A stretch of 32,000 nucleotides of DNA from Henriciella sp. (lineage in GTDB: Bacteria > Pseudomonadota > Alphaproteobacteria > Caulobacterales > Hyphomonadaceae): positions 1 through 32,000 of the forward strand of contig JASJAO010000016.1 of assembly GCA_030066975.1 (NCBI GenBank). Reading direction: 5' to 3'. Each line of letters opens with the position of its first letter. Position 1 is the first letter of the stretch. Positions 10,351 to 15,748 of the stretch are shown piece after piece. Both the position numbers and the translations under genes were made by a program. The notes under the pieces are model-generated. The model was not told the origin of the DNA. It worked only from the letters and a program-made list of their open reading frames with translations, and did no database searches.

Positions 10351-11052
10351 CTAAGCGGCGACGGCTTCTTTCTTGGGCTTGGGATCACGCAGAACATAGC
10401 CGCGGCCCCAGACGGTTTCGATGTGATGCTCGCCATTCGTGGCATTGGCCAGCTTCTTGCGCAGCTTACAGATAAACACGTCGATAATCTTCAGTTCCGG
10501 CTCATCCATCCCGCCATACAGGTGGTTGAGGAACATTTCCTTGGTCAGCGTCGTGCCCTTGCGTAGTGAGAGGAGCTCAAACATCTGATATTCTTTGCCG
10601 GTCAGGTGAACGCGCTCATCGTCAACCTCAACCGTCTTCGCATCGAGGTTCACGACAATGTCGCCAGTGCGGATGACGCTTTCCGCGTGGCCTTTGGAGC
10701 GGCGGACAATCGCGGTAATCCGGGCAATCAATTCGTCTTTGTTGAACGGCTTGGTCAAATAGTCGTCGGCGCCGTAACCAAGCGTCTTAACCTTGGCCTC
10801 GATGTCCGGATTGCCTGACAGGATCAGAACCGGTGTGTTCACCCGCGCCATGCGCAGCTGTTTCAACACGTCATAGCCGGAGATATCCGGCAGGGAGAGG
10901 TCGAGAATGATGATGTCATACTCATAGACTTTCCCGAGATCGACGCCTTCTTCGCCAAGGTCGGTCGTGTAGATATTGAAGCCCGCAGCTTTCAACATCA
11001 GTTCAATACTCCGGGCGACGGCGTTGTCGTCCTCAATCAGCAAAACTCTCAT
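10351..11052 (-). CDS. ctrA: Cell-cycle response regulator CtrA (OmpR family)
   Basis: MRVLLIEDD...IILDLSLPD receiver domain and a C-terminal winged helix ending [15 protein letters not shown], closely CtrA-like throughout. GGGGAG lies 6 nt upstream of the ATG at 11052. Confidence 0.93.
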
Positions 11053-11064
11053 TATCAACTCCCC

Positions 11065-11175: not shown

Positions 11176-12012
11176 TTAACAGTGGACTTCCTTACCGGTG
11201 CGCCCAAGCAGCGTGTGGGCAATGGCAATCGCGTCCATAATTGGCTGTGCAGACGGATCTGTAGAAATCAGTGTTTTCTGGCTGCGAATGGCTTCGCGCA
11301 CCGCATCATCACGCATCACAGTGCCGGCAAGATGCGGGCGGAAGCCCAGAAAAGTCTGGCAGGCGCGCGCAATCGCTTCATATGTGCGCTGACCCCCGGC
11401 CCGCGTTTCAGCCTGGTTGATCGCAACCACCTGCTCCACGTTCGGCGCGTAGCCTTTCAGCACTTTGATGAAAGCATAGGCGTCGGTCATCGACGTCGGT
11501 TCGTCGGTCACAATCATCACCACCTTATCGGCAGCGCGTGCGAGACGCATGCAATTGGCCTCGATACCAGCACCAAGGTCCAGAATGACCTGATCATATT
11601 GCAGGGCCAGGGCTGAGAGACCGGCCGCAAGTCTCGCGACTTCATCAGAGGACAGCTCTGCCAGCGCACCGGACCCGGACCGACCCGGCAGCACATCAAA
11701 GCCGCCTTGGCCAGAGCCGCCATCGACCGGCGTGACCGCATCTTCCAGCTCGACCCAGCCCGCAATCACAGCGGCAAGATCAGTTTCCGGCGCGATGCCG
11801 AGCTGAACATCGACATTTGCGAGGCCAAGATCGCCATCAACCAGCAATGTGCGCTTGCCGGCCTGAGCAAAAGCGCTGGCCAGTGTGATCGACATGAAAG
11901 TCTTACCGACACCACCCTTGCCGGATCCAACTGCGATAATCGAAGCTGGATCAACCCGGCGCGGCGGTTGCTGAGCAGGGCGTTCTTGGGATTTTGGAAG
12001 CAGGAAGCTCAT
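11176..12012 (-). CDS. flhG: MinD/ParA-family ATPase, FlhG (FleN/YlxH)-like
   Basis: Deviant Walker A GSGKGGVGKTF, LLVDGDLGLANV, Walker B VILDLGAG. Its start codon shares one nt with the flhF-like stop (TAATG). Confidence 0.8.
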   Translation of the reverse strand: MSFLLPKSQERPAQQPPRRVDPASIIAVGSGKGGVGKTFMSITLASAFAQAGKRTLLVDGDLGLANVDVQLGIAPETDLAAVIAGWVELEDAVTPVDGGSGQGGFDVLPGRSGSGALAELSSDEVARLAAGLSALALQYDQVILDLGAGIEANCMRLARAADKVVMIVTDEPTSMTDAYAFIKVLKGYAPNVEQVVAINQAETRAGGQRTYEAIARACQTFLGFRPHLAGTVMRDDAVREAIRSQKTLISTDPSAQPIMDAIAIAHTLLGRTGKEVHC

Positions 12013-13016
12013 TATGCGGCTCCTCTCAGGGCTACATGCGCGGGCGCGTCCTCGGTCAGGAGCTGCGCCAGGCGCGTTGGCGTGGCCGGGACAAGCCCGC
12101 CGCCAATGAAGGGGGTCACCGCCAGATGAGAGAAACTCACTTTTGCGGCTGAGAGCGCGGAGACGATGCCGCCTCTTCGTTTGGTCACGTCAAGCTTGGT
12201 GATGATCGCGCGTTTTACACCTGCGCGGGCAAACGCCCGGACTGCTTCGGCTTGATCCTCAGGGTGCCCTTCGGCACTGATCACCAGAACTGGCTCGGCT
12301 TTGATCACCGCGACCAGATCCTGCAGGCTCGCCATATCGTCCTGATCAAACGGAATGATTGCTGGCAGATCGATGACGCAGCGCTGATTGCCAGCCCGGA
12401 TCGTCTTTAACAGGGCAAACAGATCGTCCGGCGTCTTGGCGCTGCGGATCTGCCCTTGTTCCTGTTCCAGATAGGCCGCGAGCTGCGCCCCGCCTGCCGT
12501 GGAGTCGAGATCGGCGGCGACGGGCAGCACTTTGGCGTTCGCAACGGCGGCCCGGCGGGTGAGCTTGGCCGCTGTGGCCGTGCGGCCATGTCCGGGCGGG
12601 CCAACCAGAAGAATGTCACGCTCTGGCATGGCCTGGATCGGATCGCAGGTGATCATGCTTTGCAGACCGGCTGCGATCGCCGCGCTTGGCTCAGAACAAT
12701 CGAAACTATCGGAGACCCCGCTATCGGCGGTGCGATCAGCAAAGCGTTGCGGCGCGCCATGCCAGAGCAGGGCGTCGCGAACCCGGTTGCGGATCGGATT
12801 TTCCACCAGTCGCGGTGACGGCGAGGCCCCCAGGCGGGTCAGGATGCGCGATTCCGTCGGCACCATGCCGCCGCCAAGTTTGTCGGTCGCCGCCCGGACT
12901 TCCACACCGCCCGGCACATCACGCTCGGACAGGATGATGGCATCATCACCCATTTCGGCGAAAATCATCGCTTTTGCGGCCTCAAGGGACTCAGCAGCAA
13001 ATAATTTCATTCGCAT
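12012..13016 (-). CDS. flhF: FlhF-like SRP-type GTPase with degenerate G motifs
   Basis: FlhF-type N-terminus MKLFAAESLEAAKAMIFAEMGDDAIILSERDVPGGVEVRAA. The NG domain has GPPGHGRT in place of GxxGxGKT and DLPA in place of DTAG. TKLD is retained. Confidence 0.78.
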   Translation of the reverse strand: MRMKLFAAESLEAAKAMIFAEMGDDAIILSERDVPGGVEVRAATDKLGGGMVPTESRILTRLGASPSPRLVENPIRNRVRDALLWHGAPQRFADRTADSGVSDSFDCSEPSAAIAAGLQSMITCDPIQAMPERDILLVGPPGHGRTATAAKLTRRAAVANAKVLPVAADLDSTAGGAQLAAYLEQEQGQIRSAKTPDDLFALLKTIRAGNQRCVIDLPAIIPFDQDDMASLQDLVAVIKAEPVLVISAEGHPEDQAEAVRAFARAGVKRAIITKLDVTKRRGGIVSALSAAKVSFSHLAVTPFIGGGLVPATPTRLAQLLTEDAPAHVALRGAA

Positions 13017-13036: not shown

Positions 13037-13103
13037 GATTCGGAGTTTCGAGGCGAAAGGTTAACAGAATCTGTCGATTTGTTAGTTTTTACATTACTGA
13101 TTC
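13037..13103. promoter_or_regulatory. flhF upstream region with three GANTC sites and a TTAAC half-site
   Basis: GATTC at 13037-13041, GAATC at 13067-13071, GATTC at 13099-13103, TTAAC at 13061-13065, all inside a 116-bp AT-richer intergenic gap. Confidence 0.35.
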
Positions 13104-13132: not shown

Positions 13133-13393
13133 TTAGGCGGCCCTGCGGCCATCCACGATCTCGCTCAAAGTGACGCCCAACTGGCCATCTGCAATCACCA
13201 GACGGCCCCGTGCCATAAGGCGATCAGACACATAAATATCAACCAGATCAGAGGTTTGGCTTTCCAGCGCGAGAATGTCGCCTTCCGACATTTGCATCAG
13301 CTCATCCATCGGGATACGGGCCTCGCCGAGCACGACATCAATCCGCACCGGCACGTCCATTAAGGATTTCTCTAAAAATCTATTAACACTCAT
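13133..13393 (-). CDS. fliN: Flagellar motor switch protein FliN (SpoA domain only, 86 aa)
   Basis: VPVRIDVVLGEARIPMDELMQMSEGDILAL...RLMARGRLVIADGQLGVTLSEI matches the FliN/SpoA C-terminal domain. Confidence 0.85.
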   Translation of the reverse strand: MSVNRFLEKSLMDVPVRIDVVLGEARIPMDELMQMSEGDILALESQTSDLVDIYVSDRLMARGRLVIADGQLGVTLSEIVDGRRAA

Positions 13394-13429: not shown

Positions 13430-13819
13430 TCAATCGGAATGGTTGCCGAGAGGTGAATGAGGGGTGGAATTTGCAAATAATTCGCCTTGTCCGTCGATCA
13501 AAGTCGCCGCCAGACGCCGCACTTTGGAGAGGGCAATCGTCTTTTCCTCTGAACTCAAAGCCGCTGTTTCAAGCAGGGTCGCGAGCTCGACAATCGTGGC
13601 CAGTGCCTGTTTCAGATCTTCGCTGACCTGTTGCAGGCGTTCAGATTCCGCTGACAGCGTCTCATCCTGTAGAATACGAACCGCCCCGTCCCTTGTCTCA
13701 GCAAGCAGCGCGCGCAGCTCGGCCGCGCTCATCGAGACCAGATCCGGCACCTCCGGCTGAGGTGCAGAAAAGTCACTCTCGAACGGGAAAGGCTGTAGCT
13801 TTTTAATCTCGCGCTTCAT
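13430..13819 (-). CDS. Short FliH/FlbE-position flagellar assembly-like protein
   Basis: 129 aa. N-terminal FPFESDF motif followed by a predicted coiled coil. It occupies the slot between fliG and fliN and has a 4-nt start/stop overlap with fliG. The family call is tentative. Confidence 0.45.
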   Translation of the reverse strand: MKREIKKLQPFPFESDFSAPQPEVPDLVSMSAAELRALLAETRDGAVRILQDETLSAESERLQQVSEDLKQALATIVELATLLETAALSSEEKTIALSKVRRLAATLIDGQGELFANSTPHSPLGNHSD

Positions 13820-14739
13820 TCTACAAGTTCCTCATCGTCGGGATGAATCAGGATGTCGCCGCGTTTAACCAGGGTGCGGGCATGTCCGGTCAGCTCGGCT
13901 CTTGCCGCCTCAATGTCGGCGCGCCGGACCGGCCCCAGCATCTCAATCTCACTCTTCATCAGGTCTCTGGCGCGCTGGGTCATATTATTAAGGAAGGCAT
14001 TCGCGGTCTCCTCACGTGCGCCTTTCAAGGCAAGCGCCAGAACCGAGCGGTCAATGCTGGCCAGAATGGTCTGCAGGCTGGCGGGGTCGAGATGGGCAAT
14101 ATCATCAAAGGTGAACATCAGCGCGCGAATGCGCTCGCCAAGACCGGGCTCTGCGCCATCCAAGGCCGCGAGCAAACCCTGCTCAACCCGTGTCTCAAGA
14201 TTATCGAAGATGCGGGCAATCCGTTCTGTTCCGGCGGCTGGCGATGCCGGCGCGGCGGTCAGGGCCTTTTCGACCGTGGTTTCGATCGCCTGCAGGGCAC
14301 GGGGATGGACCGGGCCAAGATGCAAGAGATGGCGCAAGGCCGGCGTCGCAATCTCACTTGGCAGGTCGCGCACCAGCTCCGCAGCCGTCTTTTCCGGCAG
14401 CTTGGACAAGATCACCGCGATCACGGCGGGCCGCTCCTCTGCCAGGAAACGCGCGGTCACCGCTGTATCCTGGCGCGCGAGCCTCTGCCAAACCGATGGG
14501 GCCTGCCCCATTGCATCGCGTGGCGTCTCAGCCACATCGCGCAAATAGGCCTGGGCGGCCTTCACTTCGCTGACGGGATTATCGTCCAGCGTCTCCATCG
14601 CCTGCGTGAGGTGACGCGCTTCGGAAGGCGACAGCGCAGACCAGACCGCATTCGCTTTCGCGCCGAGCGCGCGCATCAGCGCGGCGCTGCGCAACACGCC
14701 ATCTGGCGCGCCGGATGAGACTTTGGCGGGCAGGGTCAT
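13816..14739 (-). CDS. fliG: Flagellar motor switch protein FliG
   Basis: EERPAVIAVILSKLP (EHPQ-type motif) and C-terminal MFTFDDI...ALKGAREE...MTQRARDLM...LGPVRRADIEAA...LVKRGDILI. The E. coli K264, R281 and R297 equivalents are conserved. Confidence 0.88.
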   Translation of the reverse strand: MTLPAKVSSGAPDGVLRSAALMRALGAKANAVWSALSPSEARHLTQAMETLDDNPVSEVKAAQAYLRDVAETPRDAMGQAPSVWQRLARQDTAVTARFLAEERPAVIAVILSKLPEKTAAELVRDLPSEIATPALRHLLHLGPVHPRALQAIETTVEKALTAAPASPAAGTERIARIFDNLETRVEQGLLAALDGAEPGLGERIRALMFTFDDIAHLDPASLQTILASIDRSVLALALKGAREETANAFLNNMTQRARDLMKSEIEMLGPVRRADIEAARAELTGHARTLVKRGDILIHPDDEELVE

Positions 14740-15380
14740 GAGGCTGCTCCTGGTGTCTCAGACATCCAGGTGCGCAGCAGGCGAACCGTCCCATCAGGAT
14801 TGGCCTCGGCCAGCGCTCCGGCGCGCTCAATTGCGGTGTCTTGAGACAGACCCGGCGGCGCGGCGTCCGGCGCCGCACGGGGCGAAGTGGTCTGTGCGGG
14901 CAGGACCTGCACGGCTCCCGCAGAGCTACGCTCGGCGCCGCGCAGCGACAGTCCCCCAAGGATCAGAACAATCAGTCCGAGCCCTGTCAGTTCCAACGCG
15001 CCCTGATAAGGCACTTGCGATCTTGCGCTGGTTGCGAACTCGAATTCTGACACGGTCAGCGTGTCGGTGCCGGGACGAAATCCGGTACTGGCGGCAAGAA
15101 TTGTTTCGATCCGTTCGATCCTGGCGCTGTCCGGCGCGCCATTGATCAGAACCAGCCAGCTCTTCTCTGGCCCGCCATGCACGGCGACTTTGACCTGTCC
15201 GGGCCCGGTCACGGTTTCCAGCAGCGCGGTCACCTCGCGCTCCTGCTGGCTACCGACCGGCGCTGTCGCCGGGGCGGGCTGCAAAACATCAAACAGGCGC
15301 AGAGAAAAGACCCCCGCCGCCACAAGCAGGGCGACGAGGGTCAAGTTACGCGTGATGGGCGTTCTGGCTGTTGCGGACAT
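14736..15380 (-). CDS. Mini FliF-like ring protein (two TM helices, one RBM3-like core, FliG-binding tail)
   Basis: The ATG at 15380 has GAGAGG 8 nt upstream; a GTG at 15389 is an alternative start. TM1 is LTLVALLVAAGVFSL. The periplasmic segment is VTALLETVTGPGQVKVAV...WLVLINGAPDSARIERIETILAASTGFRPGTDTLTVSEFEF. TM2 is LTGLGLIVLILGGLSL. The tail ends VRLLRTWMSE. 4-nt overlap with fliG. Confidence 0.6.
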   Translation of the reverse strand: MSATARTPITRNLTLVALLVAAGVFSLRLFDVLQPAPATAPVGSQQEREVTALLETVTGPGQVKVAVHGGPEKSWLVLINGAPDSARIERIETILAASTGFRPGTDTLTVSEFEFATSARSQVPYQGALELTGLGLIVLILGGLSLRGAERSSAGAVQVLPAQTTSPRAAPDAAPPGLSQDTAIERAGALAEANPDGTVRLLRTWMSETPGAAS

Positions 15381-15445
15381 TTGCGACACCTCTCGCCCAT
15401 AGATTCTGCGGACCCAAGCTCCGCTTTGTTCTAAGGGCGACGTCG

Positions 15446-15481: not shown

Positions 15482-15748
15482 CTAGCGGTATTGCTGGATG
15501 CGGGTCGTGCGCAGGCCTTTGCGACCGTGCTTGTTGTACAGCGCGCGCCAGCCTTCAAATTCTTCTTCACTGAGATCGTAGCGCTCGCACGCCTCGTCTT
15601 CGGTCAGCAGACCACCATTCACCGCAGCGACAACTTCTGCCTTGCGGCGCGTCACCCAGCGCGTAATGCCGGGCTTGGGGAGATCCGCGAGTGTGAGTGA
15701 GCGCCCGTCGGGGCCTTTAACACTCATCAAGTGTGCATTCTGAGCCAT
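15482..15748 (-). CDS. sciP: SciP-like small CtrA-inhibitory transcription factor (DUF1153-type HTH)
   Basis: 88 aa: LTLADLPKPGITRWVTRRKAEVVAAVNGGLLTEDEACERYDLSEEEFEGW...RTTRIQQYR. This matches my memory of SciP/DUF1153 proteins and sits next to a fliF-type operon, as in Caulobacter. Confidence 0.78.
   Translation of the reverse strand: MAQNAHLMSVKGPDGRSLTLADLPKPGITRWVTRRKAEVVAAVNGGLLTEDEACERYDLSEEEFEGWRALYNKHGRKGLRTTRIQQYR

Follow-up and report, generated by a model that had tools for sequence, protein, structure and literature searches.

FlhF and FlhG form the textbook switch for the site and number of flagella. Whether FlhF needs to hydrolyze GTP for this task is debated, and laboratory mutants conflict between species. 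Here we describe an flhF-flhG pair of Henriciella sp. (Hyphomonadaceae, Alphaproteobacteria; GenBank assembly GCA_030066975.1) that is located within the first 32,000 nucleotides of contig JASJAO010000016.1, the whole stretch of DNA analyzed, referred to below as the window. Two open reading frames (ORFs) on the minus strand exactly fill positions 11176-13016. The first encodes an FlhF-family protein with degenerate G1 to G3 motifs, which we call FlhF*, and the second an FlhG of the MinD/FleN type. FlhF* fits the class of pseudoGTPases: it has the GTPase fold, its catalytic residues are lost and the protein is under selection. The stop codon of flhF* and the start codon of flhG share the sequence TAATG. 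An earlier reading of this DNA from the letters alone (the sequence-only reading) described this one-nucleotide overlap correctly but went too far in deducing stoichiometric coupling from it, as the arrangement is that of ordinary translational coupling. The nearest named homologues belong to Hyphomonas and Henriciella, and in the databases FlhF* is simply called 'FlhF-like'.

A degenerate FlhF beside an intact FlhG

FlhF* matches Pfam SRP54 (PF00448) at 55.7 bits (cut-off 22.7), and its best NCBIfam match is FlhF (TIGR03499) with 72.7 bits, a score that fails the equivalog cut-off of 174.15. The AlphaFold2 model (mean pLDDT 83.4) comprises a small domain (residues 2-44), a disordered linker (residues 47-70) and an NG domain. 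Foldseek aligned this model with the SRP NG domains of Ffh and FtsY (E=1.5e-14) and with Shewanella putrefaciens FlhF (8r9r; TM 0.82 on the target), and FlhF* is thus predicted to have an intact SRP-type NG fold. The motifs were placed by phmmer alignment of FlhF* to Bacillus subtilis FlhF (2px0), S. putrefaciens FlhF (8r9r) and Ffh (Table 1). Together, the family matches and the alignments to FlhF structures bear out the FlhF-type identity that had been proposed from the letters alone, as well as the exchange of lysine for arginine in G1, the replacement of DTAG by DLPA at G3 and the retention of TKLD at G4. They also confirm the positions of these motifs within the protein, and a canonical GKT or DTAG elsewhere in FlhF* was ruled out by the alignment and by comparison with homologues. 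Three features had escaped the sequence-only reading, namely the loss of the catalytic G2 arginine, the absence of flagellar genes from the whole genome and the membership of the pair in a relic gene module. A second, canonical FlhF is ruled out for this genome: only three of its genes carry an SRP54 domain, those of Ffh, FtsY and FlhF*, the latter being the sole FlhF.

The N-terminus of FlhF* resembles the FliG-interaction domain (FID) of FlhF. Residues 2-44 match the crystallized 53-aa FID chain 9en1 (phmmer, E=0.0016), and the AlphaFold2 topology of this segment is beta-alpha-beta-beta, as in the crystallized FID, which consists of three antiparallel strands and one helix and binds FliG-MC (PMC11236974). 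The N-terminus of FlhF* is therefore a putative FliG binder.

FlhG aligns with FleN of Pseudomonas aeruginosa (5j1j; E=3.6e-42, residues 20-263) and with FlhG of Geobacillus thermodenitrificans (4rz2; E=2.6e-31). The FleN match confirms that its deviant Walker A, switch I and switch II motifs are intact, as claimed before. In FlhGs with an enhancer helix, the motif DQAxxLR marks this helix and its glutamine co-catalyzes hydrolysis by FlhF (PMC12826062). The sequence-only reading was right that FlhG lacks this motif here; the N-terminus is instead conserved throughout the Hyphomonadaceae as MSF[LM][LM][PR]KSx[DE]RP, which is distinct from DQAxxLR. Its conclusion that function was lost on both sides of the pair fails, however: DQAxxLR is found in none of 28 alphaproteobacterial FlhG homologues whose neighboring FlhF has canonical G1 and G2 motifs and, in most cases, DxxG. 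Since the motif is missing class-wide and even beside canonical FlhFs, its absence predates the degeneration of FlhF and is independent of it, and we reject the idea that both losses co-evolved. Beyond the core that aligns with FleN, FlhG has just about 15 residues, compared with about 35 in FleN and G. thermodenitrificans FlhG, which makes a C-terminal amphipathic membrane-targeting helix doubtful; the C-termini of relatives are variable and the short tail appears class-wide.

Conservation, order of losses and selection

A survey of orthologs, which had been suggested by the sequence-only reading, found the Lys-to-Arg and DLP[AS] changes throughout. All 120 nearest homologues (64-100% identity) share G.PG.GRT, D[LMI]P[AS] and [TS]KLD, and the substitutions are thus neither due to chance or sequencing error nor the defect of one strain. 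Across nine genera of Hyphomonadaceae (54-83% identity), GRT, the missing G2 arginine and DLP[AS] occur in all sampled genomes. In a maximum-likelihood tree the GRT group forms one clade (support 100/99), which spans at least nine genera, and its sister is a GKT group in which flhF directly follows flhA. The remaining Hyphomonadaceae genera retain GK[ST] but have already lost the G2 arginine, and their G3 glycine is nearly always gone as well (DTPA, DGPA, DCPS, DTPP; one DGPG). The sister family retains the G2 arginine and shows mixed G3 states. At the class level, we compared the 29 best FlhF homologues from outside the family in a sample of 400 alphaproteobacterial genomes. These proteins have about 330 aa and the same N-terminus, are 30-37% identical to FlhF*, and all carry GxxGxGKT and the G2 arginine, most of them also DxxG. 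The G2 arginine, present in 29/29 of these homologues, is absent in every sampled member of the Hyphomonadaceae. Because the sister genera have kept GKT without the G2 arginine and mostly without the G3 glycine, the loss appears to have been stepwise and tolerated. The sequences indicate the order: the G2 arginine went family-wide, the G3 glycine in nearly all members, and the G1 lysine was exchanged for arginine last.

Some of these changes are found beyond the clade. Among 146 representatives of the short-FlhF subfamily, 134 have lysine and 10 arginine in the P-loop, and the exchange arose independently in the genomes G551 (locus L096) and G436 (L069) and in four 50%-identity representatives (P0139, P0152, P0167, P0203); the aligned G1 of locus L098 reads GPHGSGKT. 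The independently GRT-type flhF of G551 is still located directly downstream of flhA. The G3 glycine is replaced, often to give DxxA/S, in about 37% of the 146 representatives, which suggests that G3 degeneration is common in the Alphaproteobacteria and that the triple loss in FlhF* is the extreme case. Short alphaproteobacterial FlhFs of about 330 aa (L005-L033 and representatives P0121-P0269) often have DxxA/S at G3, and in none of the FlhG partners examined is there a DQAxxLR or an extended C-terminal tail. Throughout the class, the FlhF/FlhG cycle may follow a different course.

FlhF* evolves under purifying selection. Nei-Gojobori estimates of dN/dS are 0.05-0.25 for FlhF* and 0.02-0.10 for FlhG, values that are approximate as dS is saturated (>1) in most pairs. 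Low ratios were also obtained for FlhF* of genome pairs that have no FlhA, with 0.10 for G587/G570, whose proteins differ in 29% of their residues, and 0.08 for the least saturated pair G459/G454 (dS 0.44). An alignment of 59 FlhF* homologues has 100 invariant columns. They include the P-loop glycines, R145, T146, D169, D171, D216, P218, K274, L275, D276 and R280-G283. Arginine 145 is invariant within the GRT clade and His143 nearly so. The FID is the most conserved segment of FlhF* at all depths: its identity is 77-95% among clade members and remains at 45-59% in comparisons with GKT-type and class-level homologues. The G1-G3 core diverges most across the boundary between the GKT and GRT groups. 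This pattern would fit a protein that kept FliG binding and a structured nucleotide pocket and lost catalysis. The pairing with FlhG is conserved too: 28/29 class-level loci have flhG directly downstream of flhF, as does every clade locus of sufficient length.

The gene row next to ctrA and the missing flagellum

The pair belongs to a minus-strand row in the order sciP, a gene for a 217-aa membrane protein, fliG, a gene for a 129-aa protein, fliN, flhF*, flhG and ctrA (Table 1). The adjacency of flhG and ctrA is retained in most loci of the clade. The listed ctrA ORF begins with a TTG, two codons ahead of the methionine that opens the CtrA equivalog model (MIMRVLL...), and the true start is probably this internal ATG. 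The 129-aa protein had no family match. Upstream of flhF*, a CTAAC-N16-TTAACC(T/A)TT element is conserved in clade genomes within a spacer that is otherwise unalignable. Its TTAACC resembles the CtrA half-site of Caulobacter. We regard the element as a candidate CtrA half-site promoter through which flhF* may be controlled by CtrA.

Table 1. Positions of the genes, motifs and elements discussed; coordinates refer to the window unless a contig (C) or locus (L) is given.
Feature	Position	Strand	Remarks
flhF*	12012..13016	-	334 aa; FlhF-family protein, degenerate G1-G3
FID-like N-terminal fold	12885..13016	-	residues 1-44; predicted from phmmer and AlphaFold2 topology
G1/P-loop GPPGHGRT	12579..12602	-	residues 139-146; Lys145 replaced by Arg; aligns with GSTGAGKT / GPTGVGKT
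G2 DLDS	12501..12512	-	residues 169-172; catalytic Arg of DTxR gone; aligns with DTYR (2px0)
G3 DLPA	12360..12371	-	residues 216-219; no Thr, no Gly; aligns with DTAG
G4 TKLD	12189..12200	-	residues 273-276; kept, with guanine-specificity Asp; aligns with TKID/TKLD
flhG	11176..12012	-	278 aa; MinD/FleN-type ATPase; start overlaps flhF* stop
FlhG N-terminal peptide MSFLLPKSQERP	11977..12012	-	family-conserved; alignment of 27 FlhG homologues
FlhG deviant Walker A GSGKGGVGKT	11899..11928	-	residues 29-38
FlhG switch I DGDLGLAN	11815..11838	-	residues 59-66
FlhG Walker B / switch II LDLGAG	11566..11583	-	residues 144-149
CTAAC-N16-TTAACC(T/A)TT element	13056..13085	-	upstream of flhF*; 17/18 clade genomes
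sciP	15482..15748	-	CtrA inhibitor; NF051866, 129 bits
Reduced FliF-like membrane protein	14736..15389	-	217 aa; clade-profile match to full-length FliF
fliG	13816..14739	-	307 aa; Pfam FliG_C/M/N; single FliG copy in genome
129-aa protein	13430..13819	-	FliH/FlbE position, conserved in relatives
fliN	13133..13393	-	86 aa; SpoA domain only; Pfam FliMN_C, 76.9 bits
ctrA	10351..11058	-	NF045991, 412 bits
Joined island flanks	C17:137062-139562		outside the window; ~180 bp between flanking genes
Second-class MotA	C1:150894-151163		MotA_N, 85.6 bits
Orphan MotB-like protein	L109:4420-5148 (C23)		242 aa; MotB_plug and OmpA; no MotA adjoining

The 217-aa protein had no Pfam or PDB match on its own, and its relation to FliF became visible only with a clade profile. 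Built from five orthologues and run against a database of 356 ORFs, this profile aligns colinearly with complete FliF proteins of sister genera, at the edges of RBM3 and in the FliG-binding tail at the C-terminus (E=2e-11 to 1e-6). Outside the clade, genera possess just one system, with the order fliF-fliG-...-flhA-flhF(GKT)-flhG. The row from sciP to ctrA is best read as a reduced descendant of such an older flhA-flhF-flhG type cluster, a module from which flhA and the greater part of fliF have disappeared and whose maintenance does not depend on the flagellum encoded elsewhere on an island.

In this Henriciella genome, that island is missing. The assembly is 99.98% complete (24 contigs), and the whole genome has no match to the four marker families FHIPEP/FlhA, Flagellin_N, Flg_bb_rod and YscJ_FliF; rod and hook proteins and full-length FliF were likewise not found. 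The same marker searches were positive in control genomes, and those for FlhA, FliF and FliG in congeners too. The congener G405 encodes FliF, a second FliG, FlhA and MotA within an interval of about 57 kb, which appears to correspond to the 'motility island' of Hyphomonas neptunium (PMC7200025). The genes that flank this interval are 77% and 85% identical to two genes only about 180 bp apart here, and its intervening ORFs have no orthologue-level match in this genome. As the flanks adjoin on one contig and all four marker families are absent, we reject an assembly gap as the cause: the absence of the flagellar genes is real. CheW was not found in this genome or in 6/8 congeners, including flagellated ones.

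The module outlasts the flagellum in other genomes as well. We sampled 61 genomes of the family, which are partly drafts and interrelated, so that genome counts overstate the number of independent events. An intact, full-length flhF* ORF without stops is present in 57 of them, and most genomes of the clade have FlhA and FlhF* together. FlhA is absent in 15 of the 61, yet 12 of these 15, from six genera, have an intact FlhF*. Flagellated clade members possess two FliGs, one of the module type (64-118 bits) and one of the island type (39-60 bits), and in high-quality genomes FlhF* and the module-type FliG are either both present or both absent. Genome G558 (99% complete) has FlhA, FliG and MotA of the island type without FlhF* and the module-type FliG, which indicates that the island flagellar system can exist without the module. 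G567 and G592 have none of FlhA, FlhF* and the FliGs.

Further rotor- and stator-type genes accompany the module. FliN is kept in five aflagellate genomes that were checked, and an ORF with a SpoA domain (327-363 aa) in four of five FlhA-negative relatives. The counterpart here encodes 341 aa, is located beside dksA (L105:1486-2511; C17:159068-159265 region) and has only a C-terminal SpoA/FliMN_C domain (41 bits); it may be FliM-like. Each of the 12 module-positive, FlhA-negative genomes has a single MotA, which belongs to a second class (62-92 bits), and flagellated congeners have this second MotA and the MotB-like protein in addition to the island-encoded MotA/MotB pair. The profile of the second MotA is imperfect, as this gene is present in two genomes that lack the module, G558 and G581 (72% complete).

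Proposed working, alternatives and known systems

We favor, with moderate confidence, the interpretation that FlhF* is a hydrolysis-dead and probably nucleotide-bound scaffold that tethers FliG in a CtrA-linked flagellar relic module. FlhF* would descend from the flagellar SRP-type GTPase FlhF and would have lost the ability to hydrolyze GTP. Most likely a guanine nucleotide is still bound, in the role of a structural cofactor, and the protein is fixed in a single state: the invariant P-loop glycines and threonine, the TKLD of G4 and the RRGG loop that follows argue for retained binding. At some site in the cell, FlhF* is expected to tether the FliG of the module, which is encoded three genes upstream, and via this FliG also the reduced FliF. 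This leaves the intact FlhG ATPase as the presumably only remaining nucleotide switch over this assembly. Precedents for these steps exist: the FID binds FliG and lets it engage the C-terminus of FliF (PMC11236974), FlhF alleles of P. aeruginosa are bound by FliG regardless of their nucleotide state (PMC6855561), and the R334A variant of Vibrio alginolyticus FlhF has no GTPase activity but supports normal flagella (PMC6092412). The pair would thus be the placement part of a relic that consists of the reduced FliF, FliG, an FlbE-like protein, FliN, FlhF* and FlhG and is flanked by sciP and ctrA. This relic seems to be kept by selection with or without a flagellum, presumably for a purpose other than or beyond flagellum building. 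Of the 'nucleotide-independent or pseudo-GTPase scaffold' that had been proposed from the letters, the pseudo-GTPase scaffold is the best fit, because the catalytic motifs are gone while FlhG is intact, purifying selection acts clade-wide and the FID is the best conserved segment. Nucleotide independence is doubtful since the residues of the pocket are invariant.

Several points weigh against this interpretation. P-loops in which lysine is replaced by arginine can keep binding nucleotide and occasionally allow slow turnover, and His143 of the GHGRT sequence together with the N-terminal peptide of FlhG could provide a non-canonical catalytic arrangement. DxxA at G3 is so common in the subfamily that G3 alone is weak evidence of inactivity. 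The saturation of dS limits the precision of the selection estimates, and the aflagellate genomes, related and partly draft as they are, represent fewer independent losses than the counts suggest. Finally, most clade members are flagellated and FlhF* could have a conventional placement role there.

A more far-reaching reading, which we put forward only tentatively, is that FlhF* and FlhG serve placement and control in a flagellum-derived organelle that has no filament. This organelle would have been retained in Hyphomonadaceae without export gate, rod, hook and filament and could comprise the reduced FliF, FliG, FliN, the 341-aa SpoA-domain protein, the second MotA and the orphan MotB-like protein. 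It might form a rotor/stator-type or polar-hub complex with a function other than motility in these stalked budding cells, with FlhF* as a permanent scaffold and under cell-cycle control by CtrA and SciP.

Alternatively, FlhF* could be an ordinary pole marker for the island-encoded flagellum for which hydrolysis is dispensable, and aflagellate genomes would still have it only transiently, having lost the island recently. Most clade genomes do carry both FlhA and FlhF*, a hydrolysis-dead FlhF supports flagellation in Vibrio (PMC6092412), the putative CtrA half-site would suit gene control in swarmer cells, and the dN branch of the lineage studied here is indistinguishable from that of a flagellated congener, so that the loss could be recent. 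We nevertheless consider this explanation unlikely. A transient leftover is difficult to reconcile with an intact FlhF* in 12 FlhA-negative genomes of six genera and a dN/dS of 0.10 between aflagellates that are 29% apart. Moreover, neither FlhF* nor the module FliG accompanies the island-type flagellar genes of G558, and flhF* is grouped with the genes of a separate FliG, FliN and reduced FliF, not with those of the island's FliF and FliG. That flhF* and flhG are a decaying remnant without function, a pseudogene in the making, is highly improbable and already contradicted: although catalytic motifs and, in this genome, the flagellar genes are gone, the ORF is intact in 57/61 genomes, dN/dS is far below 1, the 59 homologues share 100 invariant columns, and conservation extends to the start codon, the flhG overlap and the element upstream.

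Somewhat less probable than the pole-marking explanation is a FlhF* that still hydrolyzes GTP by non-canonical chemistry, with Arg145 and His143 acting in the P-loop and the N-terminal peptide of FlhG as a new activator. Such chemistry would be in line with the invariant P-loop shape, T146, G4 and closing RRGG loop, with the nearly invariant His143 and with the conserved MSFxLxKSx[DE]RP N-terminus of FlhG. The exchange of lysine for arginine also arose at least four more times in the subfamily and is hence tolerated. However, the G1 lysine, the G2 arginine and the threonine and glycine of G3 are missing together, and single substitutions of the G2 arginine already abolish activity in Vibrio (PMC6092412), and the equivalent allele of P. 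aeruginosa is described as locked in the GDP state (PMC6855561). In addition, G3 varies across the family (T, G, C, A, L), which is unexpected for a working Mg/gamma-phosphate site.

If the scaffold interpretation that we favor is true, FlhF* would be the first pseudo-GTPase of the SRP GTPase branch: in the literature searched, no member of the FlhF branch of the SRP/SIMIBI class was described as a pseudoGTPase, and neither this Hyphomonadaceae FlhF variant nor the module beside ctrA was described. The GRT clade of stalked marine bacteria, which by homology includes the tractable H. neptunium, has fixed an FlhF without P-loop lysine, catalytic arginine and DxxG and has kept the putative FliG-binding domain and FlhG. 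It thereby offers a natural experiment on the need for hydrolysis by FlhF. The presence of the pair with reduced FliF, FliG, FliN and a second MotA in flagellum-less genomes points to an undescribed, CtrA-linked use of rotor and placement proteins.

FlhF* shares with the known FlhFs of B. subtilis (2px0, 3syn) and S. putrefaciens (8r9r; FID 9en1) the NG fold, the FID, a short disordered linker and the TKLD of G4, and also the translational coupling to an flhG immediately downstream. It differs from them by the arginine in G1, the missing arginine of the G2 DTxR and DLPA instead of DTAG at G3, by a very short B-domain (334 aa in total) and a position that is not beside flhA, and by its occurrence in a genome without flagellar export gate, rod, hook and filament. 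FlhG has the deviant Walker A with the signature lysine, the switch I DxDxGxxN and an intact switch II in common with FlhG/FleN/YlxH proteins (5j1j, 4rz2). It differs by the family-specific N-terminus in place of the DQAxxLR helix. Its C-terminus also falls about 20 residues short of those of FleN and G. thermodenitrificans FlhG, in the region that holds the amphipathic membrane-targeting helix; both differences are common to other alphaproteobacterial FlhG homologues. PseudoGTPases are proteins with a GTPase fold that lack catalytic residues, and some still have nucleotide bound. FlhF* has the conserved G-fold and the degenerate G1-G3 motifs in common with them and would also share a scaffold role. 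Parallels also exist among engineered FlhF alleles, R334A of V. alginolyticus and R251G and K222A of P. aeruginosa, which affect the same positions, the G2 arginine and the P-loop lysine. They demonstrate that, once hydrolysis is lost, placement, assembly and FliG binding can persist. Each of these alleles has one substitution made in the laboratory, and the host is flagellated, whereas FlhF* combines three natural changes that are fixed throughout a clade and persist where the flagellum is absent.

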